Source: Deltaproteobacteria bacterium (GTDB lineage: Bacteria > Acidobacteriota > Thermoanaerobaculia > Multivoradales > JAHZIX01). From it: a stretch of 64,000 nucleotides of DNA. A model generated the notes under the pieces. That model saw nothing but the letters and a program-made list of their open reading frames with translations, ran no database searches and was not told where the DNA came from. The stretch spans positions 16,629-80,628 of the forward strand of contig JAHZIX010000006.1 of the NCBI GenBank assembly GCA_022601195.1. Reading direction: 5' to 3'. Below are positions 479 through 28,263 of this stretch, in pieces. The position numbers and the translations under genes are program-made. Position 1 is the stretch's first letter. Every line of letters starts with the position of its first letter.

Positions 479-1980
479 AGTCGTCGAGCCTCGCGGAGCG
501 GTGAAGGCACCGCCGCTGGCCATTGTGGGGGCGGAGCGCCGCCGCTAGGGGAAGGGTGTTTCCCCAAGGCCCTCGGAGGCGAAGGCCTGGTGCTCGGTCG
601 TCTTATGGGGCTGACTTCTGCCAGCATCAGGGCGGTAGCTAACCCAAAAGTGAAGGATGGCGCTGCCAAGCGAGTGGCGGAATGAAATAGGTAAAGCAGC
701 GCCCAGGCGATCATCGTGGCGCGAAAGGCCCGGGTCAACGGTGGAGCTTTCTTGGCGAGGAATTTCACGCTCATACCGAGCAGCAACAGTAGAGACAGCA
801 GGCCCAAGCTACCGTGCTCGGCGAGCATTCGGGTGTATTCCGTGTGGGCGCTGGAGAGCCGAAAGAAAATCTCATGGTACTCCGCAGCGTAGCCGGGACC
901 TACTCCGAGGATAGGGTTCTCCCTGAAGGCGAGCAAATCCCCTTGAATGATTCGGTCTCGTCCGGTGAGAGAGGGATCCGAGAATCGCTTGCCGAGATTC
1001 CCTCCGGTCATGGCGTCGAGGGCGGGAAAGAGAAGGTAGAGACCCACGGCGCCAGCGAGAGCTCCACGAATCACCGCACCGCCGCGACTTCGTCGGTCGC
1101 CGAGGAGGAAGAATCCCCCCACCGCCAAGGCGCCTAGGCAGTTGGCTAAACCGCCACGAGAGAAGGTCAGAACACTCTGACCGAGCAGCCACAGGGCAAC
1201 GATCAACAAAGACCAGTAAAGGAGCTTACGTTGTCGTTCGATGAAGGCATAAAACAGGGCGAATACTGCCCCTAAGCCGAGGGCCGCGGACACCTGGTTG
1301 GGGCCAATTCCTGCGGAGGTGATCTTGGTAGAGCCGGTGAAGTGTAAGTCGGCGGCGGAGAAGGTCGAGAACGTCGAAATAGCTGCCAGACCGAGAATCG
1401 GCGCGACCAAGGCAAAGCAGAGGTTGCGAAAGACGCTTTGGGATAGACGGAGGCAGGAGAAAAGCGCAACGCAAACTGCCAGAGCGAAGGGGCCACTTAG
1501 GTTCTTGGCGATTAGCTGACGATCAATACCCGGCATGACGGCGATGCTCGGAAGGAGCAGAGCGAAATAGATGACTGGAGTTCTCGGAATTCGTTTGTGC
1601 AGGGAGAAACGGAAGATGAGGATCATCGCCATGAGGCAGATGGAGTACTTGCCGGATTCCCACAGAATCTTTGCTCCGGTGCCTCGCCATAAAATTTCGG
1701 CGCCAACAATGTAGCCCATCACGGGGATGACCCGATTGGGATTGCGATCCTTCATGGCGAAGAACAATCCCAGGCCAAAGGTAGCCAGGGCGTGACCAGT
1801 AGAGATCAGGGAGCTGGCCCGGATCGCTACCGCGAGGGGAATGTGAGCGGCGAGGAAGGCCAGAACTTTGAAGGTCAGGAGGGGATCTTCTCGTGGAGGT
1901 GCCTGAGCCGATGCAGCAGAATTTCGGCCAGGGCGCTTTGGGGAGACTCTCACCAACGCATTTCTAGCGGGTGTCGTCAT
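475..1980 (-). CDS. O-antigen ligase / Wzy_C-family membrane protein (polymerase or ligase)
   Basis: 501-aa polytopic membrane protein. It carries Wzy_C-like motifs TFSRGGLANCLGAL, ENPILGVGPGYAAEY and SAHTEYTRMLAEHGSLG, plus a low-complexity Pro/Arg-rich C-terminal tail. Confidence 0.7.
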   Translation of the reverse strand: MTTPARNALVRVSPKRPGRNSAASAQAPPREDPLLTFKVLAFLAAHIPLAVAIRASSLISTGHALATFGLGLFFAMKDRNPNRVIPVMGYIVGAEILWRGTGAKILWESGKYSICLMAMILIFRFSLHKRIPRTPVIYFALLLPSIAVMPGIDRQLIAKNLSGPFALAVCVALFSCLRLSQSVFRNLCFALVAPILGLAAISTFSTFSAADLHFTGSTKITSAGIGPNQVSAALGLGAVFALFYAFIERQRKLLYWSLLIVALWLLGQSVLTFSRGGLANCLGALAVGGFFLLGDRRSRGGAVIRGALAGAVGLYLLFPALDAMTGGNLGKRFSDPSLTGRDRIIQGDLLAFRENPILGVGPGYAAEYHEIFFRLSSAHTEYTRMLAEHGSLGLLSLLLLLGMSVKFLAKKAPPLTRAFRATMIAWALLYLFHSATRLAAPSFTFGLATALMLAEVSPIRRPSTRPSPPRALGKHPSPSGGAPPPQWPAAVPSPLREARRL

Positions 1981-3040
1981 TGTCGCTATCCCCTAGACCC
2001 CAATGATGATTGGCTCCATCCAAGGCGCTCATGACATCGGTGGATTCACTACTCCAGCAAAACCGGCTCGTGGCCCGAAAAAAGAAGCCGTAATTCCGCA
2101 GGCGAGCCACCGAGGCAGGCCTCGACACCAGAATCGTTACCTGGTGGGCTCCCCTCTGTGCTGCCGCAGCGCTGGCCAGGCGAATCACGTCCTCCACATC
2201 CCTTTCCTGTTCCAAATTTCCAAAAAGGTCGAGTATTCGCACTCCAGGGCTGCCGACCTTGAGGTCTTGGCCCTCAGGCCAGTGGCGGCAAATCAATCCT
2301 ACCTCCGGGGCCGATGAAGGACCCGCCACGTAGAATTCTAGCTGATCTCGAAACGGCATTTCGAGATAGCGCCATTGGAAGAAATCAGCGTCCCTTAGGG
2401 TGGTTACTTGGTCCCGAGAAGTGCCTCTCGCTGCGATCGCCGCGAGCTCTGTACCAGTGGGTCGCTCGAGACGACGGGCTGTCTTGGGGCGGTAGCGAGC
2501 AACGTAGCCTCGCCACAGGCCTGCTGCGGGTCTCGCCAACCTCGAGGCTAGGCGTAGCGCTCGGCCCCGCCAACCGCTCGCGGTGGCGATTGCATTGAGG
2601 CGAGGAGGATCTAAGGGAAGAAGGAGAGTCTTCAAATCCTCTCTGACTCCCCAGCCATGCTTGCGGTGAATGCGTGCCGCCAATTCGTTGGGAAAACCGA
2701 GCAGCAACGGAGCCCGCCGCCGGACTTCCACATCGAAGAGAGTCTGCAGACCTCGGCCACGAAACGCTGGTGCCACCACTAGGTCCATCCACCACAGGGC
2801 GGGTATTCGTTGGTCGCCGACAACACATTCGATCGGAGTCACGGCGCAGTAGGCGGCGATCTCTTCCTCCACCTGAATGACCCAACGATTCCCTTCGCCC
2901 CGATGCCACCAGCTGCCATGGTGATGTAGGAACTCTGCCTTCTGAGGGCCGAAGGAGGCTTCTAAGAATGAGCGCAGTCGATCCGGTGAGACTTCTTCGG
3001 CAGTGCGCAGGAGGGGCTCTGGGGAATTCTGAGGGCTCAT
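1964..3040 (-). CDS. GNAT/FemAB(CelD/BioF2)-like acyltransferase
   Basis: GNAT motif A-like LVVAPAFRGRGLQTLF around residue 90. At 358 aa it is larger than a single GNAT domain, suggesting a FemAB/CelD-like two-lobe acyltransferase. Confidence 0.5.
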   Translation of the reverse strand: MSPQNSPEPLLRTAEEVSPDRLRSFLEASFGPQKAEFLHHHGSWWHRGEGNRWVIQVEEEIAAYCAVTPIECVVGDQRIPALWWMDLVVAPAFRGRGLQTLFDVEVRRRAPLLLGFPNELAARIHRKHGWGVREDLKTLLLPLDPPRLNAIATASGWRGRALRLASRLARPAAGLWRGYVARYRPKTARRLERPTGTELAAIAARGTSRDQVTTLRDADFFQWRYLEMPFRDQLEFYVAGPSSAPEVGLICRHWPEGQDLKVGSPGVRILDLFGNLEQERDVEDVIRLASAAAAQRGAHQVTILVSRPASVARLRNYGFFFRATSRFCWSSESTDVMSALDGANHHWGLGDSDNDDTR

Positions 3041-4236
3041 GGGATAGGCCTCGAGTCGATCTCTCTGGGCTCTTTCCCGAGGGCCTGTTCGTAGAGCTTC
3101 CCGAGGCGACTGGCAATGACTGCGCAGCCATGCTCTTGGCGAGCTAGGCGGAGCCCTTCCTGGCCCATGCGGCGCCGGAGCTCTTCATCGTCCAAGAGCT
3201 GGCCGACCGCAGCGGCGAAGCCAGCTTCATCGCCGGGTTCCACCAACAGGCCGCTGGTTCCATGGCGTACCACTTCAGGAACACCTCCAACGCGCACGGC
3301 CACAGTCGGTCTACCGGCAGCCATGGCCTCGAGGAGCGCATTGGGCATGCCTTCACTGTGGGAAGTGAGGCAAACCACCGCTAGTCTCGGCAGGAGTTGG
3401 GGTACGTCGGAGCGAAACCCCAGCATCTTGACCCGTTTCCCTAATCCAAGCCGGTTGATCTCTTGTTCCAAGCGCTGCGGCATATCCGGTTCACTGGCGA
3501 TCGGTTGGCCGATCAACACCGCCTTTGCTTCCGGTCGGTGAGGTAGGAGGCGAGCCATCGCTCGGAGAAAAAAGAGCTGGTTCTTCACTCGGCGAAGATT
3601 GCCGACGATCCCCACCAGAAGGTCATTGGCAGCGATCCCGGCAGCGGAGAGATCCACCGGCAGGTTCTCCTCCGCTCGTTCCACACAGTTGGGCAGCACG
3701 AGCAGCTTTCTTGCCGGCACTCCGGCTGCCTCTAGCTGGTCCCGCAGGGCGTGACAGTTGCTGATCTGGGCGGAGACCGAGTGGAGAGCGAGGGCTCGCA
3801 GCAGCCACGGAAGGCGCTGTAGCCCCGGTGAGAGCAGAGAACCTCTTAGAGAGCCCCAACGCACCGGGCAGCCGGCGAGCCGGCCGATGACTCCCGAGTA
3901 GGGATTGTCATGGAAACTCCAGGAGTGGACAACCTGGGGATGTAACTGACGAAACAATCGAAACAGAAACGCCGATCGCCGGGGGACTCCTCGACAGGAG
4001 GGGGGCACCGTCCAAACACGAATTCCTAGGGAGGCCAGCTCATCGTCGTAGACCACGTTCTGGCTCTGATTGAAAACGACGACATGGTTTTCGAAGCGCT
4101 GCCGATCTAGGTGTTTGAGGGCCAGGAATAACTGCCGTTCCGTGCCTCCCAACCCAAGATGGTTGACCAGGTGGAGCAGGCGAATTCGATGGCTACCAGG
4201 ATTCTCGAGGGGTGCCGTTTCGAGGGTAGCTCCCAT
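3037..4236 (-). CDS. Glycosyltransferase family 4
   Basis: C-terminal GT1/GT4 signature SEGMPNALLEAMAAGRPTVAVRVGGVPEVV. The probable start is internal, at Met25 (MGATLETAPLENPGSHRIRLLHLVNHLGLGGTE), sharing one base with the stop of the upstream gene (TAATG). The full ORF extends to 4308. Confidence 0.85.
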   Translation of the reverse strand: MGATLETAPLENPGSHRIRLLHLVNHLGLGGTERQLFLALKHLDRQRFENHVVVFNQSQNVVYDDELASLGIRVWTVPPSCRGVPRRSAFLFRLFRQLHPQVVHSWSFHDNPYSGVIGRLAGCPVRWGSLRGSLLSPGLQRLPWLLRALALHSVSAQISNCHALRDQLEAAGVPARKLLVLPNCVERAEENLPVDLSAAGIAANDLLVGIVGNLRRVKNQLFFLRAMARLLPHRPEAKAVLIGQPIASEPDMPQRLEQEINRLGLGKRVKMLGFRSDVPQLLPRLAVVCLTSHSEGMPNALLEAMAAGRPTVAVRVGGVPEVVRHGTSGLLVEPGDEAGFAAAVGQLLDDEELRRRMGQEGLRLARQEHGCAVIASRLGKLYEQALGKEPREIDSRPIP

Positions 4237-5051
4237 TAGAGGTCTCCCCTTCGCAAGGGGCGGCGGTGGAGTCCGCAGAGTTTGGCGCTGAGGTAGTCCG
4301 GGCGCCAATTGTACAGGCCGACGCGGGGGATCTCGAATCGGGGAATACCGAAGCGAAGAGAGTCCTCCGCAAAGGCGGCCTGGTAGCCGGCGGCGCGAAC
4401 AGCCTTAGCGACGCAGAGGTCATAGTCCCCCGAAGGGTAGGCAAATAGATCGACCTTCTGGCCACTGACCTCTTCGAGGAATCCCTTGGAGCGGAGTAGC
4501 TCGGATTCGAGGCTGGAGCGATCGCAGGTAGAGAGTCGGGGGTGGCTCTCGGTATGGCCGCCTAGGGTGATCAAAGGGCTTTTGGCGCAGGCCTCTAGCT
4601 GCTCCCGGGACATACCAGCGAAAAGGTCCGTGGCGACTTCCTGCGGCAGGGGACCGCAGGCCTCCTCTTGGCTGCGGCTGGTGTGAAGGCGCTGGCTCGG
4701 TTCTCCCACATGACCGGTGGCGACGAAGAAGACGGCTGGGGCCCCCGCTTCTTCCAATATCGGTAAGGCGTTCTCGGCATTGTTTGCCAGACCGTCATCG
4801 AAGGTCAGAAGAACGCTCCTTGGAGGGGGGCCGCCGGGCTCTAGGAAAGCCTCCGGAGGAAGAAATTGGTAGCGTTCTCCCAACCACCGAAGAATACGCT
4901 GCAGCTCTTCCGCGGAGAGGTAGGAAACGGCTCCAGAGGGGAGTTCCGGATAGCGCTGCCGAGCAATGCCATGGAACTCCAGCACGAAGCTACCGTTGCC
5001 TACTAAGAAGCGGCGGCACAGTTCGGTGAAAGGCAGGCGCCAACTAGACAT
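4236..5051 (-). CDS. Polysaccharide deacetylase (CE4 / NodB homology)
   Basis: LLTFDDGLANNAENALPILEEAGAPAVFFVATGHV is the classic NodB motif 1-2 region. The ORF track offers a TTG start at 5132, but the more likely start is ATG (MSSWRL) at about 5051, just past the stop of the upstream GT4. Confidence 0.8.
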   Translation of the reverse strand: MSSWRLPFTELCRRFLVGNGSFVLEFHGIARQRYPELPSGAVSYLSAEELQRILRWLGERYQFLPPEAFLEPGGPPPRSVLLTFDDGLANNAENALPILEEAGAPAVFFVATGHVGEPSQRLHTSRSQEEACGPLPQEVATDLFAGMSREQLEACAKSPLITLGGHTESHPRLSTCDRSSLESELLRSKGFLEEVSGQKVDLFAYPSGDYDLCVAKAVRAAGYQAAFAEDSLRFGIPRFEIPRVGLYNWRPDYLSAKLCGLHRRPLRRGDL

Positions 5052-6249
5052 GCTCGGCTTCCTGCTGCAGGTCTTCGGTGGTGAGCTGTGCTTTCCGCCG
5101 CCACTTCCAAGCAGCGAAGAGGCTCTCTCCAATGAGGTCTTGCCATCCTTCCAGGGTGTAGCGTTGGGCAGTCTTCCGAGCCTGAGAAGAGATCCTCCCT
5201 AGCCGCTCAGGGTCTGCCGTCAGTGACAGCACCGCATTGGCCACCTGCTTGCCTTCCGGGGCTTCCAAGAGAGCGCCGCAACCCTCTTCCAATAGAAGGC
5301 GAAGGACCGACACCGGCGGAGCGACAACCGGCAGGCCACAAGCCAGGGCTTCAAGAGCAGCTTTGGGGAACCCTTCCGCGGTGCGAGTGGGGAAGAGAAA
5401 GATATGGCTACGGCACAGGGCGTCGAGGACCCCCGGGTGGCTGAGGTTGCCGTGGAAGGTCACCGCATCCAGGAGGTCCAGATCCTTTGCCATGGATTCC
5501 AGCTCGGCACGGCAAGGGCCCGCTCCGACGACTTCCAGGTGAGCCTCTGGGTAGTGGTTCCGGATGAGGGACAGAGCGGAGAGGCAGGCGCGGGTGTTCT
5601 TGCCGCGGCTCAAGCGACCGACCGTGACCAACCTCAGCGGTCGCCCCGGTTGCCAAGGCGAAGAGATCGGAATCTCGTTCATTTCTTTCCGGCTGAGAGA
5701 CGTGGAGAAGATCCATTGAACAGCAGGGTAGCGCGGCTCCGGTGGCGCGGCGTCGCCTCCCGTGGCGAGCACGACGTTTCTTCCTCCCGCAATGCGAGGT
5801 AGCAGCCAGGCGAGGAAGCGGTCGGCGAGGGTGGTGCGGTTCCCCCAGGTGCCGCAATGGCGCACCAGAAGGGGTTTTTTTCTGATCAGGGCGAGCAGCA
5901 GACCCAGAGTCCCTAGATCTCCCGGTACCGCCGCGTGCACCGCGTCGGCGTGGCCCACTTGGCGCCAGAGGTTTGGCAAATGACGGGGAAACCAGATCAG
6001 CAGAGCGAGTTTCCGCCGCAGGCCGAGGCCCGGTGGTTCCGGTAGGGGGGAGACCCGAAGCTCATGTCCGGCTAGGGGAGTCAGGCCCTTCGGTGCCGGG
6101 CTCCGCCGATGGGGGAGCAATAGGGTCGTCTTTTCGAAGAGCTGGGAGAGTGCTCCCATTTGAAAGGGGAAGCCACCATCCGTGGCGAAACCACTCGCTG
6201 CTTCCGCAGAGGGCCAGCAAGGCTTGTGGGAAAGGACGAGCAATTCCAT
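5044..6249 (-). CDS. Glycosyltransferase family 4
   Basis: 401 aa with the retaining GT-B C-domain signature FPTRTAEGFPKAALEALACGLPVVA. Confidence 0.85.
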   Translation of the reverse strand: MELLVLSHKPCWPSAEAASGFATDGGFPFQMGALSQLFEKTTLLLPHRRSPAPKGLTPLAGHELRVSPLPEPPGLGLRRKLALLIWFPRHLPNLWRQVGHADAVHAAVPGDLGTLGLLLALIRKKPLLVRHCGTWGNRTTLADRFLAWLLPRIAGGRNVVLATGGDAAPPEPRYPAVQWIFSTSLSRKEMNEIPISSPWQPGRPLRLVTVGRLSRGKNTRACLSALSLIRNHYPEAHLEVVGAGPCRAELESMAKDLDLLDAVTFHGNLSHPGVLDALCRSHIFLFPTRTAEGFPKAALEALACGLPVVAPPVSVLRLLLEEGCGALLEAPEGKQVANAVLSLTADPERLGRISSQARKTAQRYTLEGWQDLIGESLFAAWKWRRKAQLTTEDLQQEAEHV

Positions 6250-6264
6250 GGAGAGCTGAGAATC

Positions 6265-7973: not shown

Positions 7974-8022
7974 CAGAGTTTTTCCTGCCCATCGATGCTC
8001 GAGGCCGTTCTTCCAGCCAGCT

Positions 8023-9294
8023 TCACGACTTCCAGACTCCTTTGCGCTGCTTCTGCCACTGGAGTAGCTCTTGCGTCAGGCGGCCGTAGGTGGCCTCGAA
8101 GGAGTATCGCTGGGCCACTTGTTGATGGGCCAGTTCTCCTTGTTGACGTCTTTGCATCGGGTCCTTGAGCAGCTCTAGGGCGCGCCGCGCCTGATTTTCC
8201 GGCTCGGATTCCAGAAAGATGCCCTGGCCGTCTCGAAGGTCCATGCCGGCGACGGCATCCTTAGAGGCGATCACCGGCAGGCCGAGAGCCATCACTTGAA
8301 CCAGGCGGCTTCGGAAACCATAGGTCCCTTGCCAGGGGCAAAGCACCAAGCTCATGGTGTTGAGAAGAGGCGGCGCGTCTTCCACGAATCCCGTCACGTG
8401 AACTCGGGAATCTGATTCCTCGAGGTTGCGAATCTCTGCGGGAGGGTTGGAGCCCACGATCCACAGCTCGGCTTCGGGCAGCTGCTGCCAGACCAACGGC
8501 ATGATCTTCTCGTAACAGCTGCGAGCATCTCGTTGATTGTGGACGCTGCCCAGGCCACCAAAGTAGGCCAGCCTCGGAGGCGAAGCGGGTTGCGGGTCGA
8601 AAGGCCATTCGCCGAGATCGATACCCATGGGAGCGTAAAAGACCTGCTGCTTGGGGCCGCAGTGTCGCCGCACGTAGGTGTCTTCCTCCGCATTGATGGA
8701 GATGAGGCCATCGAAGTCTCCCCAAGCCGCTTCTTCTCGCCTCCGATAGGCGGTGACCTTACGCCGACGCAGCCACGAGGGGAGCCGCGGTCGGGCTTCC
8801 AGCTGGCGCCCAAAGGACTGCCAAAGGAGGTTGTGCATATCGAGTACCGAAGGCACCCCTCGTCGCCGGAGGGCTGCGGCAGCGCGGTGAGAATGCCAGT
8901 ACTCGAAAAGAGCTAGGTCGTAGGCTTGAGGATCGATGGCTCCGAGCACTCGTTGGGGTGACAGCTCGAGCTCTCCCACCAGGTAGTTCGAAGTCTTCAA
9001 GGAACGAAGGGCGGCGTACCCCGCTGCCCGCACGCGGTGACTCCAGCGAGAAGCGGTACTTCGAGTGTAGAGGGACTCCATCACGACGGCATGATCGCAG
9101 AGCTCCTTGAGCTCCTGGCGCAAGCCCGGCCGTCGGCTGCTCTCCGCGAAAGTCAGAAAGGTCGTCTCGAAGCTCTCCCGGAGCGCCAAGAGTTTGTTGC
9201 GCACCCGTTCCCGTTGCCCAGCGACAGCTGGGAAGGGGAGAACCGCCGAGACGATCAGGATGCGCGGTCGCGACAATTTCACTTCTTCTCTCAA
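8023..9294 (-). CDS. Glycosyltransferase family 4
   Basis: 423 aa. The N-domain starts RILIVSAVLPFPAVAGQRER. The C-domain has FGGLGSVHNQRDARS...IVGSNP...LVLCPWQGTYGFRSRLVQVMALGLPVIAS, giving a GT4 architecture. Confidence 0.85.
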   Translation of the reverse strand: MREEVKLSRPRILIVSAVLPFPAVAGQRERVRNKLLALRESFETTFLTFAESSRRPGLRQELKELCDHAVVMESLYTRSTASRWSHRVRAAGYAALRSLKTSNYLVGELELSPQRVLGAIDPQAYDLALFEYWHSHRAAAALRRRGVPSVLDMHNLLWQSFGRQLEARPRLPSWLRRRKVTAYRRREEAAWGDFDGLISINAEEDTYVRRHCGPKQQVFYAPMGIDLGEWPFDPQPASPPRLAYFGGLGSVHNQRDARSCYEKIMPLVWQQLPEAELWIVGSNPPAEIRNLEESDSRVHVTGFVEDAPPLLNTMSLVLCPWQGTYGFRSRLVQVMALGLPVIASKDAVAGMDLRDGQGIFLESEPENQARRALELLKDPMQRRQQGELAHQQVAQRYSFEATYGRLTQELLQWQKQRKGVWKS

Positions 9295-11138
9295 GGTCGC
9301 TTCGCTTCTCCCGAGGCCGCCACGGTCTTTCTGCCCAACAACATAGGGCGAGAGAAGCCATCCGGGGCAAACTCTTCAACTTGTGGAAAACCGTTGGCCT
9401 GGAGGAGCCTCTTGAGGAAAGTCAAAGTGGATTTCTGAGCTTTGTTCTCGGTGGCCTGGGCTCGGGTGTCGTTCTTGGCCTGAAGCACCATCATGGGGGC
9501 GAGCTCCGCTGCTCTACGGACCACCTGAGCCATTTCCTCCTCCTCTAGGTAGTAGAGGGAGCAAAAGGCGGTCACGAGATCGAAGGAGCCCCAGTCTTCC
9601 GTCAGCACGGCACGCATATCCCGTCTCTTGAGGTCGAGGCTGTAGGACCGCATATCTCGCCAATGGAATAGGGCTTCCAATGATCGAGCGCTTTGGCAGT
9701 TTTCTTCCGACTGCTCCACCGCGACGACTTGGCGAGCTCCGGCCCGCAGCATCAGCAGGGGGAGCACACAGTTGTGGGAGCCGAGGTCGAGAATGCGTTT
9801 GCCTTCGATCTGGCCTTCCAGCGCTCGTCGGTTGAGGTACTCCCACCTCCCGGTGCCGCTGTCGACGGACCAGAAGCCGCGAGTCGCCAGGCCGTCGCCT
9901 AAGTCCACGGGGGCATAGGATTCGAGGGCCGGGGTTGCCAAGAGGGCACGGGCGCTGCCTTCCGTGAGGAGGTCTCGGTCGTAGAGTCGGTTGAACTTTG
10001 AGCGGTCGCGGTCCCGCTGTAGGGCGAAGAGGAAGCCAAGATCCGGGCCGTGGCAATAGCCATCATCGAAATCGAAGAAGCTCGGCAGGCCCTCTACCGG
10101 ATCCACAGCAACATTGCTAAAGGTGAGGCTTAAACCGGTGACGCCACGGGAGTGAATCACTTCCATCTGGCGCTCCAATTCGGCGACAAAACCTGCGCCG
10201 ACCGCTTTTTGTAGGTGCTGGGTTCCCCTCTCCAGTATCGCTGCCAGCCGCGCCGGCGGTTCCAGGGCCTCGAGGTCCGGGTCCGTCGCTGTTTGTGACA
10301 GGCGGATGCGGGCTCCGGAGCGCACCAGGAGGTCGTTCAAGGTGTCCCCAGGAAGGAAACTTCGGGTGAGGTGATAGCGCTTCTCATCGACCGCGAGAAC
10401 GGTCGGCACCCGGGCGTGACCGGCGAGTTGGTCGAGGATGGTCCACTCTTTCTGAAAAGTCCGTTGGTCGCCTCGAAAGTTCTTGCGAATGGCAACCCAA
10501 CCTTGGACTAGGACCAAATCGAGGTCGTAGCGAGATCGGTTGAGGAAATCCTCTTTGGAGCCAGGGTCGAAACCGGGGAAGGTGCCGAAGTTGGAGAGCA
10601 GCTTGCCATCGGCGTCGATGTGGCCGAGAACGACCAGCTCATCTCCCTCGCGCTGCGATTCCACCGCTCTCCGCACCGTCCCATCGACTTCCCAGCTCTG
10701 CCAATCGATGGCGCTGCCCTTGGTGGCACGATCTTTGGTGGCACCGTCTTCGAGGGGATTGGCCGAGGTAAGTAGAGAGTGAGAGGGCAGCCTCGACCGC
10801 GCCCCCTCGAGGCGCTGGCGCCTCTGGCGAGCTTCGGACAAGCTCTGCCAACTCCACCGAGCCAGTGCCAGGAACAAGCCGAGGATGATGCCTGCTGGAA
10901 TTCCAATCCATGGAACGGTAATCAGCCCGAGCAGGAAGAAGGCTGTCATCCCGGCGAAAGTCCCGGCTGCACGGACCCGACGCGGGCTGTGGTGAAAAAA
11001 GGTTCGGTAGCGCAGACGGGGCCATAGGTAGCCTCCAACCAGATAGAGCAGGTAGGAAGGTCGCCGTCGCCGGAGCACCTCCATCAGGCGGACGAGGGCA
11101 TTCATGGTGTTCTTCCACCCCAGGTCGTGACTCCGCAA
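9291..11138 (-). CDS. Membrane-anchored protein-kinase-like domain fused to C-terminal class I SAM methyltransferase (WbdD-like chain-terminator candidate)
   Basis: 615 aa with two N-terminal TM helices (LLYLVGGYLW...; FFLLGLITVPWIGIPAGIILGLFLALA). The central domain has a beta3-Lys-like WVAIRK, an FSNVAVDP catalytic-loop-like segment and a DFG-like FFDFDDG, but no canonical HxD. The C-terminus has MTase motif I KRILDLGSHNCVLPLLMLRAGARQVVAVEQSEEN. Confidence 0.55.
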   Translation of the reverse strand: MRSHDLGWKNTMNALVRLMEVLRRRRPSYLLYLVGGYLWPRLRYRTFFHHSPRRVRAAGTFAGMTAFFLLGLITVPWIGIPAGIILGLFLALARWSWQSLSEARQRRQRLEGARSRLPSHSLLTSANPLEDGATKDRATKGSAIDWQSWEVDGTVRRAVESQREGDELVVLGHIDADGKLLSNFGTFPGFDPGSKEDFLNRSRYDLDLVLVQGWVAIRKNFRGDQRTFQKEWTILDQLAGHARVPTVLAVDEKRYHLTRSFLPGDTLNDLLVRSGARIRLSQTATDPDLEALEPPARLAAILERGTQHLQKAVGAGFVAELERQMEVIHSRGVTGLSLTFSNVAVDPVEGLPSFFDFDDGYCHGPDLGFLFALQRDRDRSKFNRLYDRDLLTEGSARALLATPALESYAPVDLGDGLATRGFWSVDSGTGRWEYLNRRALEGQIEGKRILDLGSHNCVLPLLMLRAGARQVVAVEQSEENCQSARSLEALFHWRDMRSYSLDLKRRDMRAVLTEDWGSFDLVTAFCSLYYLEEEEMAQVVRRAAELAPMMVLQAKNDTRAQATENKAQKSTLTFLKRLLQANGFPQVEEFAPDGFSRPMLLGRKTVAASGEAKRP

Positions 11139-11160
11139 ACAGGCTGCATGATCGGGTGGT

Positions 11161-12003
11161 TCATCCCTTCGGTACCGCTAGGACGTGCTTTGGGTAGAGG
11201 CGGCCCCCCTCTCGAACCGGCTCGATGGGAGTGAGGGTGTAGGAGGCGGCGGTGAGGAGCCGTTGGACTGCGGTGTCGTTGGCGGGATCGTGAACCTCGA
11301 TCAGCCAGGTGGGAGGAGTCTGCGAAGCGAGCAGGTCTCTGGCCCCTTCCAGCGCTTGGCCTTCTGCGCCTTCGATGTCCATCTTGATGAAGTTAGGGGG
11401 CGGGTGGTTGGAGACGAAATCATCCAGTCGGATCGTCGACACCTGCACGGTTTCTCCCTCTTCTTGTGCTCCCTCTTGTCGAGAGGAGCTTGGCTCGGAG
11501 TCGGCGACGAGGCTCGCTTCCGTGGTGGCTCTGCCGGTGCCGAGAAAAAGGGTCGAGTGACCGGTTTCGCTGGCTACGGCGAAGGACTCCAAAGAAACCT
11601 GCTGGCAACCGTTTTGTTCCAAAGCAAGCTCCAGGAGTCGCCGGTTTGCCTCGACCGGCTCGAAAGTGAAGACCCGCCCCTTCGGCCCCACGATGCGTGC
11701 GGCCAGCAAGCTCATATAGCCGTTGTGACCACCGATGTCGTAGCACACTCCGCCCGGGCGGAGATGGCGCACCATGGTCTCCTGAGCAGGCAATTCGTAG
11801 ACCCCGAGGCGTTGGGCCAGGCCTCCGGTGAATCGGGCGCCTCGCAGGGGGCCGGAGAGGACGCGATGGCGCCGCAGAGCCCGTCGGCAAATGGCCTCGA
11901 AGGGGCGGCGGAAGGGTCCCCACCAGAGCTTCCCAAGAAGCCTCTGGAGAGGGGTAATGGTCACAGAGGATTCCTGTTCCACAGGTGTCTGGGCAGCCTT
12001 CAT
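11161..12003 (-). CDS. FkbM-family methyltransferase
   Basis: GGVCYDIGGHNGYMSLLAA...NFIKMDIEGAEGQALEGA matches the Methyltransf_21 (FkbM) hallmarks. The likely start is MKAAQ at 12003, overlapping the upstream stop as ATGA; the ORF track offers an earlier start at 12042. Confidence 0.8.
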   Translation of the reverse strand: MKAAQTPVEQESSVTITPLQRLLGKLWWGPFRRPFEAICRRALRRHRVLSGPLRGARFTGGLAQRLGVYELPAQETMVRHLRPGGVCYDIGGHNGYMSLLAARIVGPKGRVFTFEPVEANRRLLELALEQNGCQQVSLESFAVASETGHSTLFLGTGRATTEASLVADSEPSSSRQEGAQEEGETVQVSTIRLDDFVSNHPPPNFIKMDIEGAEGQALEGARDLLASQTPPTWLIEVHDPANDTAVQRLLTAASYTLTPIEPVREGGRLYPKHVLAVPKG

Positions 12004-13433
12004 GCCTTCTCTTTTCGGTCTTGGGCCAAATGCAGCAGGCACTCAGCGACACGGCGGCCGCTGTTGCCATCGAGGGTATCCCCGAACATTTCGTGGAGGA
12101 AGCGACGACGGATCTCGCTGTCTCCCTGCGGCTCGCTGAGACCCCGGTACAGCATGCTCCTCATATCTTCGACACTTCTGGCCACCATTACCGCACCGCT
12201 CTGGGCCACAGGCCAATAGTGGTCGAAGCGAATGTGGCGCTCAAAGCCGAGGGCCCACGGTAGGTTCGAGCCGGGGGGGTCGAAATCGAGATTCATCACC
12301 GGTTTGTCGAACAGCAGCAGCTCGAGAGAAACGGTGGAGGCAGCGTTGATTCCAACGGTGGCGTGGCGCAGTAGGTTGGAGTAGAGAGCCAGGTCCTCGA
12401 AAAGGGGTGTTTGCCAACGAGGTTCCCATAGGACTTCCGGAAACACTACGTCCGGGAGGTTGCGTTTCGACAGTTCCAGCATCTCGGGGCTGGTGCCCTT
12501 GACGTAGGTCCGCACCACCAGTTGTGGCTTGTGGGGCAGATCCAGCTCTGCAAGGATGCGGATCACTTCCTCTACGTGGCGATGCTCTTCGAAAAAGTGA
12601 TTCGAGATTCCGGTGGTGTAGAGAACGAAGGGTCGATTGGCGTCGAGGCCAACCCGTTGACAGAGCTCCTCTCGGGAGAGCTCCAGATCCGATTTGAGAT
12701 GAAAGTCGAATTGGGGAGTGCCGGTCGTCCAAACGTTTTCCGCTTTGACCCTCGGGTAGATTTCCAGGAGCTGCTGGCGCATGTTCTCGTGCCATACCAG
12801 GTAGTGGTCGTAGGGCGGAAAGATGCGGCTACGGGAGGTGAGATTGTCCCAGGAGAAAATGAAGCCCGCGGTGGGGATGCCCATGCGCTTGGCGACTCGA
12901 ATGGGCAGCTCTCCGGCCTGGCCATGGATATGGGAGCCGTTAAACACTAGGTCCGGTTGGAGTTCTTCGAATAATTCGTCGAACCGGCGGGTCGGCCGCA
13001 GAGTGTAGCTCAGGCGGTTTTCCAGGGCGGTCAGGGCGTGGAGGCTCGGGGAGTTGGCGAGGAGTCTGGAGGCAGCTTTGATCAGCCACCGCTGCAAGCT
13101 CTTGCCCCGCTCGGCGGCGCGGCGATCCCGTAGCTCCCAATGGTTTCGGGCGACGGCGCTCCATAGCCACCGGTCGTGGGCATTCTCGGTGAGAGTTCGC
13201 AAATAGTAGGAGAGGCGCGGCTGCGGCAGCTCAGAGAGGGGCAGGATCGCCTCGACGAAGGGCCGGAAAGGTTCCACGAAGGCCTCGTCGTGAACCACCG
13301 TCAACACGGTGACCCGTGCCTGCTCGTGAAGGGTCCGCAGGGTCTCGGAGTAGAGGAAGTTGCGCACCGCCTCTCCGCGCGGGATCACCAGCACAACGTG
13401 GGGTCGCGAGGACTTGTTTTCTGGGGAAGTCAA
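12000..13433 (-). CDS. GT-B-fold surface-polysaccharide biosynthesis protein (TagF/KpsS-like glycosyl- or polyol-phosphate transferase); possible ulosonic-acid transferase
   Basis: 477 aa. RPFVLYTTGISNHFFEE resembles the TagF-family YAPTWR region. Its position immediately next to the NeuB-like/CMP-synthetase pair is the usual place for the cognate transferase. The assignment is weak. Confidence 0.4.
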   Translation of the reverse strand: MTSPENKSSRPHVVLVIPRGEAVRNFLYSETLRTLHEQARVTVLTVVHDEAFVEPFRPFVEAILPLSELPQPRLSYYLRTLTENAHDRWLWSAVARNHWELRDRRAAERGKSLQRWLIKAASRLLANSPSLHALTALENRLSYTLRPTRRFDELFEELQPDLVFNGSHIHGQAGELPIRVAKRMGIPTAGFIFSWDNLTSRSRIFPPYDHYLVWHENMRQQLLEIYPRVKAENVWTTGTPQFDFHLKSDLELSREELCQRVGLDANRPFVLYTTGISNHFFEEHRHVEEVIRILAELDLPHKPQLVVRTYVKGTSPEMLELSKRNLPDVVFPEVLWEPRWQTPLFEDLALYSNLLRHATVGINAASTVSLELLLFDKPVMNLDFDPPGSNLPWALGFERHIRFDHYWPVAQSGAVMVARSVEDMRSMLYRGLSEPQGDSEIRRRFLHEMFGDTLDGNSGRRVAECLLHLAQDRKEKA

Positions 13434-13491
13434 GGCAGGCCTATTCCGTTAGTAGCAGATGCTCTCGCCGCGGCAATTTTCAGATCAGGCC

Positions 13492-15381
13492 TCAAAGGAC
13501 CCCGAAACGTCCCAAGCGGTGGATGGCTTCCACAAAACCCGCGGCGTTGTGCAAATGCCCGCTCCAGATCTCCGGCACCCAGCTAAAGTCTTTGTGGGAG
13601 AGGAGCTCCATCAAGTCATCCCATTCCACGACGCCCTCACCGATCTGCAACCCTTCGCCATCGATTCCGCTGGCATCGGCGACGTGCAGATGACGCACAT
13701 GGGGCAGACACAGGTCGACGAAATCCTGCAGCTTGCGGTGATAGAAGTTGCAATAGAGCTGGGCGTGGGAGATATCCAGAGTCATCCCCAGGCCTAGCTC
13801 CTGGCAGAACTCCACCAATTCCTCCGGTCGGATGAAGACGTTCTGGACCCATTGCCCTCCCAGGTACCAAGGCCGGGGAGGAAGATTTTCCGGCAGCAGA
13901 ATGGTGCCCTTCGCATCGAGTCGGCGAAAGGCCTCCACGGCTCGACCGAGGAGCAGGTCGTGGCGCTCGATGGGCTCGTCCATGCTCATGCCGCCGACAT
14001 GGATGACCACGCCCACGGGACCGGTGAAATGAGCTTGCATGGCAGCAGCCTTGTCGATGGTGCGCTGCATCAGAGTGATGGCTTGTTCACGGATCTCGTC
14101 ATCGAAGGAACAAAGGTCCAGGAGTCGGCTGTCGGAAAACTCGGGAGCATGAATGAACAGCTGCTGCGGGTGAGGCGAGGGGGGAGCTTCGAAAGGGTGA
14201 TCCACATCCGCTTCGCTGAAATGAAGCTCCACTAATTTCGGCTTCTTCTCCAGAATCTCCTGGAGATCGTGGAAGCGGGCCTTGAGTCCCCAGGTACGGA
14301 CCAGCTTCGAGGGTTCCAGGACGCGATCCGTGCCGGTCGACAAGTCCCCCTCGGTGAAATATTCGTCCTCTTCGATATTGCGATCCAAACGAGTGCCGAG
14401 GAGCTCTTGCATGCGCTGGGGGGAGAGCCCTTTGCCGGGTCCCTTGACTCGCACCATTGCTCGCTCGACGACCGTGCCCGTTGCCAAGTCTCGAGACGCG
14501 ACCAGGCTCTTGCGCAGCACCTGGCGATTGAGCATCTCCATGGTGGAAAGGTGTTTGACTTGGTCCCCTAGAGCAATTTCTCCATGGCGAATATCGCGCA
14601 CCAACTTCTGGATCCCTGCCGGCTCCAGACTCGCTGGGTGGTCCGGTCCAGGGAGGGTGCGGTCCAGGGTGATGTGTTTTTCGATGATCACGGAGCCCAA
14701 GGCCAAGGCCAGCATGGGGACGGCAATGCCCCGTTCGTGGCTGCTGTAACCCACCGGCACGTCCAACTCCTTGAGTCGCTCCAGGTAGCGCAAGTTGAGG
14801 CTCTCGAAGGGGGCCGGGTAGGTGCTGACGCAGTGGAGCAAGGCGAAGGAGGCGCCGAGATTCTTGAGGTGGCTAACGGTTCTCTCGATCTCCTCCGGAG
14901 TCGCCATGCCCGTCGAGAGAATCAGGGGCTTGCCCGTAGCGGTCAATTTTTCCAGCAAGGGCAAATTGACCAGATCCGCAGAGGCCACTTTGTAGATGCT
15001 CACTCCGAGCTCTTCGAGAAACTCCAGGCTCGGGGCGTCCCAGGGAGTGCACATGAAGCGGATTCCCTTTTCGTCGCAGCGCGCCTTGATCTGGTGGAAG
15101 CCGTCGTCGGTGAGCTCCTGCTGTTGGAGGATCGGTAGAAGGTATTGAAAAGCCCACTCGGCAGAGTTGGGATCGTTGAGCAGCTTGGCCGGGTACAGGC
15201 TCTTGACGTTCCGTTTCTGAAATTTGACCGCGTCGGCACCGGCTTCCGCAGCGACATCGACCAGCTTTAGGGCCATGTCCAGGCTACCGTTATGGTTCAC
15301 GCCGGCCTCGGCGATGATGAAGCAGGGCTCGCCCGTTCCGATACGGCGATCTTCCAGTTGCAAATAAGGTGTCTCAGGCAT
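13492..15381 (-). CDS. NeuB-family ulosonic-acid synthase (PEP-condensing, with SAF domain) fused to a C-terminal xylose-isomerase-like TIM-barrel (AP_endonuc_2) domain
   Basis: The N-terminal CFIIAEAGVNHNGSLDMALKLVDVAAEAGADAVKFQ is the classic NeuB/PseI/LegI motif. The SAF region lies around SLVASRDLATGTVVERAMVRVKG. Residues ~350-629 carry LHVADASGIDGEGLQIGEGVVEWDDLMELL, typical of sugar-phosphate isomerase/epimerase TIM barrels. Confidence 0.8.
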   Translation of the reverse strand: MPETPYLQLEDRRIGTGEPCFIIAEAGVNHNGSLDMALKLVDVAAEAGADAVKFQKRNVKSLYPAKLLNDPNSAEWAFQYLLPILQQQELTDDGFHQIKARCDEKGIRFMCTPWDAPSLEFLEELGVSIYKVASADLVNLPLLEKLTATGKPLILSTGMATPEEIERTVSHLKNLGASFALLHCVSTYPAPFESLNLRYLERLKELDVPVGYSSHERGIAVPMLALALGSVIIEKHITLDRTLPGPDHPASLEPAGIQKLVRDIRHGEIALGDQVKHLSTMEMLNRQVLRKSLVASRDLATGTVVERAMVRVKGPGKGLSPQRMQELLGTRLDRNIEEDEYFTEGDLSTGTDRVLEPSKLVRTWGLKARFHDLQEILEKKPKLVELHFSEADVDHPFEAPPSPHPQQLFIHAPEFSDSRLLDLCSFDDEIREQAITLMQRTIDKAAAMQAHFTGPVGVVIHVGGMSMDEPIERHDLLLGRAVEAFRRLDAKGTILLPENLPPRPWYLGGQWVQNVFIRPEELVEFCQELGLGMTLDISHAQLYCNFYHRKLQDFVDLCLPHVRHLHVADASGIDGEGLQIGEGVVEWDDLMELLSHKDFSWVPEIWSGHLHNAAGFVEAIHRLGRFGVL

Positions 15382-15616: not shown

Positions 15617-16315
15617 TCAGGACTTGACCGCGCGGCGCAACTGAAAGAGCTGCTCCATGCGCGGAAGATCTTCGGGCTCGTCGATCTGGAACGAATCAAG
15701 GGGGTCCATCCGGTGAACGGCGATTCTACCACCTAGACGGTTGCCATGGCGACGCAGCACCCAGGGCTTGAAGAGATAGATCGAACCGTTTTCTAGTAGA
15801 TCTTCTCCCAGATCCTGGCGGCGTTGACGCCTCTCGAAGTCGTAGCTAACGGAGCTCAGGCCCTGGGCATTCAGGCGCCATACGAATCCGTGAACCGGGC
15901 AAGCGGAAAACAAGCTGTCTGCCCCTTCTCGGTGCAGGGTTTCGATGGCCCGGGCTATGTCTTCCGGTTGGCGCAGAGGGGATGTGGCTTGGAGGAAGAG
16001 GACTAGGTCTGGCACGTATCCCTCCTCCTGTTCCAGGTGATCCAATGCATGGACCAGAGCCGACTCGGAGCTGGCTTCGTCGCCACTGATGTCTACCGGG
16101 CGGTGGACGACTTCAGCACCGTACTCGCTGGCCACTCCGGCGATGACCTGGTCATCCGTGGAGACGACCACCCGGTCCACGGCGGAAGCTTGTCGAGCTT
16201 GCTCGATGCTATGGGCGACCAGAGGTTTTCCCGCTACCAGGTGGACGTTTTTTCCAGGTATTCCTTTGGAGCCCCCCCGGGCAGGGATCAGGGCGAGGAT
16301 GGAAGGTGCGCTCAA
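15617..16315 (-). CDS. CMP-ulosonic acid synthetase (acylneuraminate/KDO cytidylyltransferase family)
   Basis: ALIPARGGSKGIPGKN N-terminal motif, 232 aa. It is separated from the synthase gene by an unusual 235-bp gap. Confidence 0.85.
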   Translation of the reverse strand: MSAPSILALIPARGGSKGIPGKNVHLVAGKPLVAHSIEQARQASAVDRVVVSTDDQVIAGVASEYGAEVVHRPVDISGDEASSESALVHALDHLEQEEGYVPDLVLFLQATSPLRQPEDIARAIETLHREGADSLFSACPVHGFVWRLNAQGLSSVSYDFERRQRRQDLGEDLLENGSIYLFKPWVLRRHGNRLGGRIAVHRMDPLDSFQIDEPEDLPRMEQLFQLRRAVKS

Positions 16316-28261: not shown

Positions 28262-28263
28262 GA

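Follow-up and report, generated by a model that had tools for sequence, protein, structure and literature searches.

An undescribed kinase-like/methyltransferase family, one clade of which lacks the catalytic Asp and is linked to a nonulosonic-acid cassette

To our knowledge, only two unrelated prototypes of kinase-methyltransferase pairs acting on bacterial surface glycans are known, and both are enterobacterial. In the WbdD proteins of Escherichia coli O9a and Klebsiella pneumoniae O3, a protein-kinase-fold domain and a class I SAM methyltransferase (MTase) share one chain acting on the cytoplasmic side of the membrane, and the locus encodes a Wzm/Wzt exporter bearing a cap-binding module. 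In O9a WbdD the N-terminal MTase precedes the kinase, followed by a C-terminal coiled-coil ruler and an amphipathic membrane helix. WbdD becomes kinase-dead upon D351A/E substitution, and the O8 WbdD is an MTase alone (PMC3482155). The K. pneumoniae O7 ORF6 protein consists of MTase, kinase, CBM, coiled-coil and GT2 modules, in an order that does not match the protein described here; its AmiN/APH-like kinase depends on an essential Asp, D441, and a coiled-coil ruler accompanies the characterised terminators (PMC11231755). MTase-kinase glycan-capping pairs therefore do not share a single origin, and their kinase domains are unlike one another (PMC3482155; PMC11231755).

The focus protein of this study is encoded within a giant surface-polysaccharide gene cluster in a window of 64,000 nucleotides (the whole stretch of DNA that was analysed). 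Its family is large, previously undescribed and drawn from uncultured microbes. Like WbdD, the focus protein joins a protein-kinase-like domain to a class I MTase, probably at the cytoplasmic membrane face, at a locus where Wzt carries a cap-binding type of module, and it has equivalents of the Mg-binding Asn (N356) and the DFG Asp (D369) of O9a WbdD. It differs in that D351 is replaced by Ser and the catalytic-loop Lys by Thr; the domain order is kinase-like, then MTase, reversed relative to WbdD as a previous sequence-only reading of this DNA had it; an N-terminal hairpin takes the place of the C-terminal ruler and amphipathic helix; and its clade is tied to a nonulosonic-acid cassette, whereas O9a WbdD is tied to a polymannan. 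No specific sequence or structural kinship with WbdD was detectable, WbdD being absent among the matches listed when the family profile was run against the PDB and when the central-domain model was submitted to Foldseek. The family appears to represent a third, independent and much larger kinase-MTase group (576 representative clusters) with a domain order opposite to that of the known prototypes, and our literature searches found no described kinase-like/MTase family in polysaccharide loci.

Gene start, membrane segment and methyltransferase

The sequence-only reading had taken the open reading frame 9291..11138 on the minus strand, which opens on a TTG at 11138 and encodes 615 aa. The frame is present, but translation more probably begins at the ATG at 11105 (Table 1), since this is the start of the 100%-identical NCBI MAG protein P0001, the alignments with homologues begin there, and GGTGGAAG lies 7-14 nt upstream. 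The gene and the downstream GT4 gene overlap by 4 nt. Numbered from the ATG, all the motifs quoted by that reading were found: VAIRK (K208), LTFSNVAVDP (N331), FFDFDDG (D345) and ILDLGSHNCV (D440).

In the full-length AF2 model (pLDDT 90.8) the only long helices are those of the N-terminal hairpin; no coiled-coil ruler was found in this model, and the chain stops about 8 residues past the MTase. The hairpin, formed by a single hydrophobic stretch, is likely a membrane anchor that would leave both ends of the protein on the cytoplasmic side. The two N-terminal transmembrane helices proposed earlier are thus plausible for this protein, but just 21 of the 40 family members show such a segment, and anchoring by transmembrane helices, which had been made part of a chain-terminator model, does not hold as a family trait. 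The basic and aromatic helices preceding the hairpin occur also in members without it and may therefore form a membrane-surface helix.

The C-terminal class I MTase, also predicted earlier, is genuine: the PF13649 match of the focus protein exceeds the family cutoff, and the domain has a Rossmann-like fold, a glycine-rich motif I (LDLGSHN, D440) and an acidic residue after beta2, with E464 and D509 conserved. Structurally it comes closest to MTases of small molecules and natural products. In a third group of relatives, Acidobacteriota proteins of about 400 aa, only a C-lobe remnant of the kinase-like domain accompanies the MTase, which marks the latter as the indispensable part. CmoB-like carboxymethyl transfer was considered (members of the D-x-K clade defined below weakly match PF08003) and set aside, the similarity being at the level of the fold and no CmoA-like gene being seen.

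Table 1. Features of the focus gene and its surroundings, in window positions; residues are numbered from the ATG at 11105.
Feature	Position	Strand	Basis or remark
Focus gene	9291..11105	-	604 aa from ATG at 11105; stop codon 9291-9293
Conserved basic/aromatic helices, aa 1-40	10986..11105	-	Family consensus LRxRGxxYxxYLxxGYLxPRL
Hydrophobic stretch of ~42 residues, aa 44-85	10851..10976	-	Helical hairpin in model
Protein-kinase-like domain, aa 132-395	9921..10712	-	Profile matches and AF2 central-domain model
Beta1-beta2 loop insert, ~30 residues	inside kinase-like domain	-	Conserved, IDxDGR...RxR
K208, beta3 Lys of VAIRK	10482..10484	-	Invariant
E220, partner of K208	10446-10448	-	Invariant
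Catalytic-loop region H318...N331 (IHSRGVTGLSLTFSN)	10113..10154	-	Profile alignments, hmmalign
S326, at catalytic Asp position	10128-10130	-	Profile alignments
T328, at catalytic-loop Lys position	10122-10124	-	Profile alignments
N331, Mg-binding Asn	10113-10115	-	Invariant; alignment
D345-F-D347, DFG-equivalent motif	10065..10073	-	D345 invariant
RDRDR motif, R364-R368	10002..10016	-	Alignment of both clades
Conserved junction and class I SAM MTase, aa 396-596	9318..9920	-	Junction YAPxDLGxGLxxxGFWSVDSGTGRW
Downstream cassette	475..6249	-	Synteny; co-travels with focus gene in other genomes
Wzy_C	475-1980	-	Downstream cassette
GNAT-like 358-aa protein	1964-3040	-	Downstream cassette
GT4	3037-4308	-	Downstream cassette
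Polysaccharide deacetylase	4236-5132	-	Downstream cassette
GT4	5044-6249	-	Downstream cassette
GT477, TagB-like GT-B protein, candidate nonulosonic-acid transferase	12000..13433	-	NCBIfam BFO_1060 family match
NeuB-type nonulosonic-acid synthase with C-terminal xylose-isomerase-like TIM barrel	13492..15381	-	NeuB in conserved cassette
CMP-nonulosonic acid cytidylyltransferase (CTP_transf_3; PseF/KdsB-like)	15617..16315	-	In conserved cassette
Wzt ABC ATPase with C-terminal Wzt_C module	26972-28585	-	PF14524, E 3.4e-10; real start probably near 28261
Wzm permease	28264-29160	-	Export system partner of Wzt

The kinase-like domain and its active site

The kinase-like character suspected for the central region is borne out by modelling. 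Modelled alone, the domain reached a pLDDT of 91.9, and a bilobal protein-kinase-like (PKL) fold is recognisable by both structure and profile comparison: the family profile matched the PDB sequences 8car (E 1.6e-5) and 7wj6 (E 5e-5), both annotated as Ser/Thr protein kinases, the latter being the kinase domain of the class III lanthipeptide synthetase CurKC. Profiles were needed, as a single-sequence phmmer search of the PDB with the focus protein returned nothing significant; similarly, Foldseek with the full-length model returned MTases only, and the kinase-like domain surfaced once it was modelled and searched alone. Judged on model and profile together, the fold is genuine and beyond chance.

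The nearest kinases in profile and fold searches are of the RIO, Bud32 and LanKC types. Like the RIO/Bud32, LanKC/LanL and Kdo/WaaP kinases, the family has a compact C-lobe that lacks an activation-segment subdomain. It differs from all of them in its IDxDGR...RxR insert, which stands where they have the glycine-rich loop and is an N-lobe element specific to this family, unlike those of RIO/Bud32, the best fold matches; in an RDxDR helix motif; and in the fused MTase. All of these kinases retain the catalytic Asp, whereas the clade of the focus protein does not. Membership among the WaaP/Kdo kinases was considered, but it rests on just three weak matches to Pfam Kdo (PF06293) among 20 members of this clade (best E 1.1e-5), and the focus protein gave no match at E up to 1.

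K208, E220, N331 and D345 are invariant in 40/40 sequences, and in alignment A1, which covers the 40 close homologues, position 347 is Asp or Glu without exception. All profile alignments pair Ser326 with the catalytic Asp (GLSLTFSN versus RDLTPTN and HGDLTTSN), which sharpens the earlier remark that a canonical HxD is missing. A competent kinase is expected to have its catalytic Asp, that of the HxD motif, five positions ahead of the Mg-binding Asn and a Lys or equivalent at +2; here these positions hold Ser326 and Thr328, while the Mg-binding Asn and the DFG Asp are in place. By sequence the domain is thus a pseudokinase, with both the catalytic Asp and the loop Lys missing, and the suspicion of an atypical active site proves right for the clade as a whole. 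Ser occupies position 326 in 39 of the 40 close homologues, and among full-length proteins two clades separate: position 326 is Ser in 100% of 56 S-x-T proteins, with Thr or Ser at 328, versus Asp in 100% and Lys in 97% of 32 D-x-K proteins. The ATP/Mg ligands and the SAM motifs are common to both clades.

The S-x-T clade has also gained basic residues. In the RDxDR motif both clades conserve D365 and D367, but R368 is specific to S-x-T proteins (Ile in D-x-K); R168 and R293 (for Glu) are likewise specific to S-x-T in the kinase-like domain, as are R483, R548 and K555 in the MTase region, and together these residues would fit an acidic acceptor. Some members that retain the ATP-site residues K, E, N and D have Ala, Val or Gly instead of Ser326; the Ser itself is therefore not essential, and a role for it as catalytic nucleophile or phospho-acceptor is unlikely. 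A relocated catalytic Asp, e.g. the clade-specific D401 or D275, could in principle act as an alternative base. The mean pairwise identity of the kinase-like domain is 43.5%, versus 54.7% for the MTase; since it is still conserved to this degree, the domain has a function.

Two clades and their gene neighbourhoods

An exhaustive search recovered 576 representative relatives in two clades, all with the kinase-then-MTase order. Among GTDB species-representative genomes the matches, found by a scan that was seeded on the MTase motif and finds solely members bearing that motif, all lie in uncultured MAGs from many phyla, archaea included. Three D-x-K proteins sit on contigs of just 3-5 kb, and the D-x-K gene context was taken from the GTDB scan.

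A conserved cassette for a sialic-acid-like sugar, a nonulosonic acid, is genetically linked to the S-x-T clade. In the 15 long S-x-T loci NeuB and the CMP-transferase are each present 13 times and GT477 14 times, versus 0/7 long D-x-K loci for all three. GT477 shows a weak likeness to Tannerella transferases: its match to the NCBIfam BFO_1060 family, at E 1.2e-11, scores 44 bits and so falls short of the curated cutoff of 200. Across several phyla, the homologue lies inside a glycan cassette in 15/16 long loci. The divergent homologue P0047 (locus L007) lies outside any polysaccharide locus and has degenerate SAM-binding residues.

Export genes also distinguish the clades. The Wzt with a C-terminal binding domain noted earlier was recovered about 16 kb from the focus gene, and Wzt_C-bearing Wzt proteins are encoded at loci L003, L004 and L015 as well; within the available flanks, Wzm/Wzt are present in 4/20 S-x-T loci. 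At L003 the homologue, the nonulosonic-acid genes and wzm and wzt all alternate with one another, and at L004 the homologue is the sole gene with an MTase Pfam match in a 21-kb locus. The focus locus encodes at least five MTases besides the focus protein. Wzx was detected in 0/20 S-x-T loci with an HMM that, having been built from D-x-K neighbours and fusions, is biased, a result backed by Pfam tables. The D-x-K clade adjoins Wzx flippases or is fused to them: in P0142 and P0154 the kinase-like/MTase unit, with a canonical D-x-K loop, is joined to a MurJ/Wzx-like flippase. A fusion of the unit to a GT4 occurs as well. Because the canonical-loop relatives are tied to Wzx and not to Wzm/Wzt, the family, taken in its entirety, is not one of Wzt-coupled terminators.

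Bacterial envelope machinery can carry pseudokinase domains, as in mycobacterial MviN/MurJ. These offer an analogy of a catalytically depleted kinase fold attached to, or working beside, lipid-linked glycan export machinery; the focus protein differs in keeping all ATP/Mg ligands and in its fused MTase, and its flippase-fused relatives have the canonical D-x-K.

Possible roles of the fusion protein

We tentatively favour a role as a cytoplasmic-face MTase acting on a lipid-linked nonulosonic-acid glycan, the kinase-like domain being retained to bind nucleotide or acceptor. The membrane-associated protein would modify the glycan through its C-terminal SAM-dependent MTase, the working catalytic part, and its target would be the lipid-linked product of the co-travelling cassette, which supplies the nonulosonic-acid synthase, the CMP-activating enzyme, the TagB-like candidate transferase, GT4s, a deacetylase and a Wzy_C protein. 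Export by Wzm/Wzt would follow methylation. The putative acceptor is a sugar chain that would carry the nonulosonic acid, a tie made by gene neighbourhood only. The kinase-like domain may have arisen from a sugar- or protein-type kinase with a canonical D-x-K loop, as still seen in sisters of the same architecture; in the S-x-T clade the catalytic Asp would have changed to Ser and the loop Lys to Thr, with ATP/Mg ligands retained and conserved arginines gained. With both residues lost, ordinary base-catalysed phosphoryl transfer would be gone, and the domain may instead bind nucleotide and/or an acidic acceptor and so position or gate the MTase. The WbdD proteins of E. coli O8 and O9a, which differ as methyl only versus methyl-phosphate, provide a functional precedent. 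The terminators of E. coli O8 and K. pneumoniae O5 put the methyl on directly without phosphorylation, but a kinase domain is entirely absent from O8 WbdD, whereas the focus protein retains a conserved, probably nucleotide-binding one. That the product is a cap read by the Wzt binding module is conceivable but doubtful.

On sequence grounds, the four invariant ATP/Mg residues together with the conserved Ser326 and Thr328 could equally belong to an active enzyme with altered chemistry. The sequence-only reading had proposed a WbdD-type terminator; a true one would use a non-canonical base to phosphorylate the terminal sugar and then methylate the phosphate, giving a cap that stops elongation and is read by Wzt. 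A kinase-like fold and an MTase in one chain, albeit in reversed order, invariant K208, E220, N331 and D345, Wzt_C modules here and at three further loci, a possible substitute base in D401 or D275 and the two unrelated terminators on record (PMC3482155; PMC11231755) all agree with it. We nevertheless consider it unlikely, because both proven kinases need the catalytic Asp (WbdD D351, ORF6 D441), and in 100% of the clade this Asp and the loop Lys are replaced, with even Ala or Val tolerated at position 326. There is neither a coiled-coil ruler in the focus protein nor a detectable specific similarity to WbdD, the canonical-loop sisters accompany Wzx, the conserved linkage of the clade is to nonulosonic-acid genes, and the other MTases and the candidate nonulosonic-acid transferase at the locus could equally provide a cap.

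Less probable again is a repurposed kinase-like enzyme which, as SelO and SidJ do, has kept activity, using ATP on an anionic group (nonulosonic carboxylate or phosphate) without a general base and together with the MTase. The gain of R168, R293 and R368 alongside the loss of Asp and Lys, the invariant Mg/ATP ligands, the strict linkage to an acidic-sugar cassette and the purifying selection still acting on the domain would suit such chemistry, but the proposal is purely inferential, our literature searches found no precedent in glycan pathways, and Ser326 can be replaced by Ala or Val. A bolder version, in which the S-x-T clade uses ATP on the terminal nonulosonic acid and, with the MTase, creates a new terminal mark read by Wzt while the D-x-K sisters mark for Wzx, strikes us as improbable. 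We give very little credence to methylation of a lipid, a protein or a small molecule instead of a glycan, with the kinase-like domain as a protein-protein docking module: the nearest MTase structures and the stray P0047 would agree with it, but class I MTase fold matches are uninformative on substrate, P0047 has a degenerate SAM site, and both the conserved placement inside glycan cassettes and the fusions to Wzx/MurJ flippases and GT4 speak for a glycan.

The two clades amount to a natural experiment, with a textbook kinase site beside Wzx in one and a nonulosonic-acid cassette with ABC-transporter export in the other. If confirmed, these findings would give hundreds of genes now labelled just 'methyltransferase' a correct annotation and draw attention to a nonulosonic-acid glycan cassette that is conserved and widespread among environmental bacteria. 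They would also supply a pseudokinase and a kinase in a tractable pair, with which the signalling of glycan completion to exporters could be studied. Two residues that the family conserves are altered in the focus protein, as G330S and W342S.

The focus gene and the fold of its product

The sequence-only reading had placed the focus gene at 9291-11138; this 615-aa open reading frame, on the minus strand, is real, and all the motifs quoted from it are found in the protein. The mechanical ORF opens at TTG. The start is more likely the ATG at 11105, giving 604 aa, since a 100%-identical NCBI protein from a Deltaproteobacteria MAG (P0001) begins there, homologue alignments begin at that residue and GGTGGAAG sits 7-14 nt upstream. 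We number residues from this ATG; the earlier numbering is higher by 11. Where two N-terminal TM helices had been proposed, there is a single hydrophobic stretch of ~42 residues (aa 44-85), which AlphaFold models as a helical hairpin.

Pfam recognises nothing in the protein except the methyltransferase at its C-terminus (PF13649; 29.8 bits, cutoff 27; aa 449-545 in the numbering of the 615-aa ORF), and NCBIfam contributes no more than faint traces of LanKC and Bud32 in the central region. Pfam Pkinase and APH do not match the window protein; members of the D-x-K sister clade, described below, match one or the other weakly. Homologues form 48 clusters at 36-55% identity, nearly all metagenomic. 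AlphaFold modelled the full-length protein from a 40-sequence alignment with a mean pLDDT of 90.8 and a pTM of 0.88, and the central domain alone, from its own alignment, with a pLDDT of 91.9. Kinase matches of the central domain are Rio1 (14.3), Rio2 (14.1), the CurKC class III lanthipeptide-synthetase kinase domain (13.3), PIM1 (12.8), PknB (12.3) and Bud32 (12.3). Searched against PDB sequences, the family profile matches the same kinase group (8car, E 1.6e-5; 7wj6, E 5e-5). It also matches two chains of ~230 aa whose deposited name is 'non-specific serine/threonine protein kinase'; 8k20_B among them is the kinase subunit of an Arabidopsis KEOPS complex. Model and profile matches together show that the central domain, earlier called kinase-like, has a genuine protein-kinase-like fold; the protein belongs to that superfamily and to the class I methyltransferases. 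Pfam Kdo/WaaP is weakly matched by 3 of 20 members (best E 1.1e-5), and WbdD, WaaP and KdkA are absent among the 60 listed matches of every search.

In profile alignments, 'GlSLTFGN...IDFD' of the family falls on 'RDLTPTN...VDFE' and 'HGDLTTSN...IDFG', which places Ser326 at the position of the catalytic Asp and Thr328 at that of the catalytic-loop Lys, bearing out at residue level the earlier remark that a canonical HxD is missing. K208 (beta3 Lys), E220 (alphaC Glu), N331 (Mg-binding Asn) and D345 (DFG Asp) occur without exception in the 40 sequences, Ser326 in 39 of them. Because some members of the S-x-T type (see below) carry Ala, Val or Gly at 326 with K, E, N and D kept, the Ser itself is not indispensable. 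By the sequence definition the protein is a pseudokinase. Two further serines occur in the window copy alone (n=40): Ser330, next to the Mg-binding Asn, is Gly in the 39 others, and Ser342 is Trp in 32.

Two clades of kinase-like methyltransferases

An exhaustive HMM search with the central-domain profile against 1.84 billion representatives (threshold E ≤ 1e-3) retrieved 576 proteins, 186 of them at E ≤ 1e-30. Among 188 aligned sequences, comprising 150 listed matches and the partly overlapping earlier homologue set, 89 carry Ser and 77 Asp at the catalytic-loop position, and 87 carry Thr and 68 Lys at +2, a split that defines two clades: S-x-T, which includes the window protein, and D-x-K. 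The order of kinase-like domain then methyltransferase, with homologous linker and methyltransferase, is found in both (65 S-x-T and 40 D-x-K sequences); the family also contains shorter sequences consisting of the kinase part alone, possibly with fragments among them. Pfam has no model for the kinase-like domain, and we found no description of the family in the literature; at source, members go by the name 'methyltransferase' alone, apart from an occasional 'LPS kinase InaA family' or 'Bud32'.

Among full-length proteins (56 S-x-T versus 32 D-x-K), position 326 is Ser in 100% of the former and Asp in 100% of the latter, and position 328 is Thr/Ser in the former and Lys in 97% of the latter. 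K208, E220, H318, N331, D345, D365, D367 and the SAM-binding motifs are common to both. Seven further residues are conserved in the S-x-T clade only, namely R168, R293, R368, D401, R483, R548 and K555; the D-x-K clade has Glu at 293, Ile at 368, Tyr at 401 and Ala at 483. Mean pairwise identity is 43.5% in the kinase-like domain versus 54.7% in the methyltransferase for S-x-T (ratio 0.80), and 36.1% versus 39.8% for D-x-K (ratio 0.87); the kinase-like domain is not decaying.

Several members are fusions: D-x-K kinase and methyltransferase behind MurJ (P0142, 1083 aa), kinase and methyltransferase behind Wzx (Polysacc_synt; P0154, 982 aa), S-x-T kinase-like domain with GT4 (P0055, 719 aa) and D-x-K kinase with beta-helix (P0124, 631 aa). 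A third group, ~400-aa proteins of Vicinamibacterales and other Acidobacteriota, combines a homologous methyltransferase with only a C-lobe remnant (H318...RDDR) and a degenerate catalytic loop; near its loci (L032, L033, L035, L037, L039-L045, L048, L049, L051) none of the window's cassette genes was found. In P0047 of Verrucomicrobiales (L007, 10001-11719) the loop is of the S-x-T type and K, E, N and D are intact, but the SAM-binding residues are degenerate (D440N, E464A). P0047 apparently mirrors the window protein, with the kinase-like part retained and the methyltransferase lost; its gene adjoins RND efflux genes outside any polysaccharide locus.

Gene neighbourhoods and proposed function

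Further loci came from homologue look-ups and from a scan of GTDB representative genomes which, seeded on one methyltransferase motif, yielded 44 loci, all in MAGs, from Acidobacteriota, Chloroflexota, Verrucomicrobiota, Planctomycetota, Pseudomonadota and Actinomycetota, plus two archaea. We searched the loci by tblastn with the window proteins and sorted them by catalytic loop. NeuB and the CMP-transferase each occur in 13 of 15 long S-x-T loci, and the TagB-like GT-B protein GT477 in 14; all three are found in 0 of 7 long D-x-K loci. Homologues of the window's first Wzy_C protein, deacetylase, two GT4s and GNAT-like 358-aa protein are present in most S-x-T loci; in the window the cassette covers about 475-16315. 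GT477 matches the NCBIfam 'BFO_1060 family glycosyltransferase' below the model cutoff (E 1.2e-11); the family is named from TagB-like Tannerella forsythia enzymes whose knock-out removes terminal pseudaminic/legionaminic acid (PMC5420450). Locus L003 has its homologue, GT477 and nonulosonic-acid genes intermingled with wzm and wzt, and in the 21-kb locus L004 the homologue is the sole gene with a methyltransferase Pfam match.

Four of 20 S-x-T loci have Wzm/Wzt in their flanks; absence from the others is weak evidence, since flanks were limited to 10 kb and the window's own wzt is 16 kb from the focus gene. On the same scoring Wzx is found in 0 of 20 S-x-T and 5 of 12 D-x-K loci, and Wzm in 0 of 12 of the latter. 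Wzx is directly downstream of the D-x-K gene in L010, L024 and L047, and 0.6 kb downstream in L027. In L024, from an Actinomycetota MAG, the Wzx HMM match is a stop-to-stop ORF (1594-3990) overlapping the kinase-methyltransferase match (1133-2482), which could be a kinase-methyltransferase-Wzx fusion, a frameshift or overlapping genes.

We tentatively favour a methyltransferase acting on a nonulosonic-acid-bearing glycan, with the kinase-like domain as a nucleotide/acidic-acceptor binding module lacking base-catalysed phosphoryl transfer. The fusion partners (flippases and a GT), the membrane anchors and the contexts of the loci all suggest that the family was ancestrally a kinase and methyltransferase unit, working at the cytoplasmic face of the membrane on a lipid-linked glycan. 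The window's clade would then have given up ordinary base-catalysed phosphoryl transfer and kept the domain for binding nucleotide and/or acidic acceptor, beside an intact methyltransferase. The nonulosonic-acid-bearing glycan is the likeliest substrate because of the conserved cassette linkage and the six conserved basic residues gained.

The sequence-only reading had suggested an inverted-order WbdD-type chain terminator. Kinase-like domain followed by methyltransferase stands, and the protein is like WbdD in outline, pairing a kinase fold with a methyltransferase at the cytoplasmic face in a locus with Wzm/Wzt-CBM; unlike WbdD, it has the opposite domain order and no catalytic Asp, coiled-coil ruler or detectable homology to WbdD. 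The corresponding Asp is essential both in WbdD (D351, the Mg ligands being N356 and D369; PMC3482155) and in the K. pneumoniae O7 terminator (D441; PMC11231755). A capper of the WbdD kind, adding methyl-phosphate with the help of a non-canonical base, is therefore unlikely. ATP-dependent chemistry on an anionic group seems quite improbable, and a non-glycan methyltransferase, set beside the cassette linkage, very improbable. Cutting across all these readings, it is somewhat doubtful that the Wzt module reads this enzyme's product as the cap, since the nonulosonic acid itself or any of several other methyltransferases could account for the cap equally well. K. pneumoniae O12 is Kdo-capped. So is K. 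pneumoniae O4 (PMC11231755), with which a nonulosonic acid as cap may be compared. That kinases and methyltransferases modify glycans is already established; the family-level picture is new and testable, and the function, as we infer it under the favoured reading, would be fairly unremarkable, that of a methyltransferase whose kinase domain has been retired.

The polysaccharide locus of the window

The focus gene lies in a minus-strand gene array within a polysaccharide locus of ~47 kb, which encodes an initiating Bac_transf (45759-47255), Wza, a Wzc BY-kinase, a CpsB phosphatase, Wzm and Wzt (together 26972-29160), two Wzy_C proteins, many GT4 and GT2 glycosyltransferases, a NeuB fusion, a CMP-transferase and at least five methyltransferases besides the focus protein. 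No Wzx is recognisable in the locus. With this combination of genes, the locus is either a hybrid of different export systems or a pair of systems lying side by side.

Features of the window (nt)
Feature	Coordinates	Strand	Remarks
Polysaccharide locus	475-47255		
Wzy_C protein, first	475-1980		
Focus gene	9291-11105	-	
Ser342 of focus protein	10080-10082		
Ser330 and Mg-binding Asn331 of focus protein	10113-10118		
GT477	12000-13433	-	
NeuB-type synthase	13492-15381		SAF domain; C-terminal xylose-isomerase-like TIM barrel (PF01261, E 1.9e-23)
GT-C/PMT_2 membrane protein	16312-18105		
UbiA-family prenyltransferase	18105-19100		
GT2-methyltransferase fusion	20057-21466	+	
PMT_2 protein, second	21416-22945		
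Wzt, mechanical ORF	26972-28585		Wzt_C (PF14524, E 3.4e-10)
Wzy_C protein, second	40746-42170		

The Wzt with a binding domain noted earlier is indeed present, its C-terminal module occupying aa ~381-505 of the long ORF. Its mechanical ORF overlaps wzm by ~320 nt and its ABC domain begins only at aa 169; the true start is probably near 28261, as had been assumed. The NeuB-TIM barrel fusion recurs in a Chloroflexia MAG (L018), the halves being 74% and 72% identical to the window's, while most other cassette loci have instead a short NeuB and a CMP-transferase fused to a HAD phosphatase, arrangements that suggest different nonulosonic acids. The UbiA-family protein matches decaprenyl-phosphate phosphoribosyltransferase models below cutoffs (E ~1e-24), and its gene adjoins the first PMT_2 gene; these genes, with that of the second PMT_2 protein, resemble 'three-component' systems for extracytoplasmic pentofuranose addition (PMC11127046). 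The GT2-methyltransferase fusion, among the few large plus-strand ORFs of the otherwise minus-strand array, is another candidate for terminal methylation.
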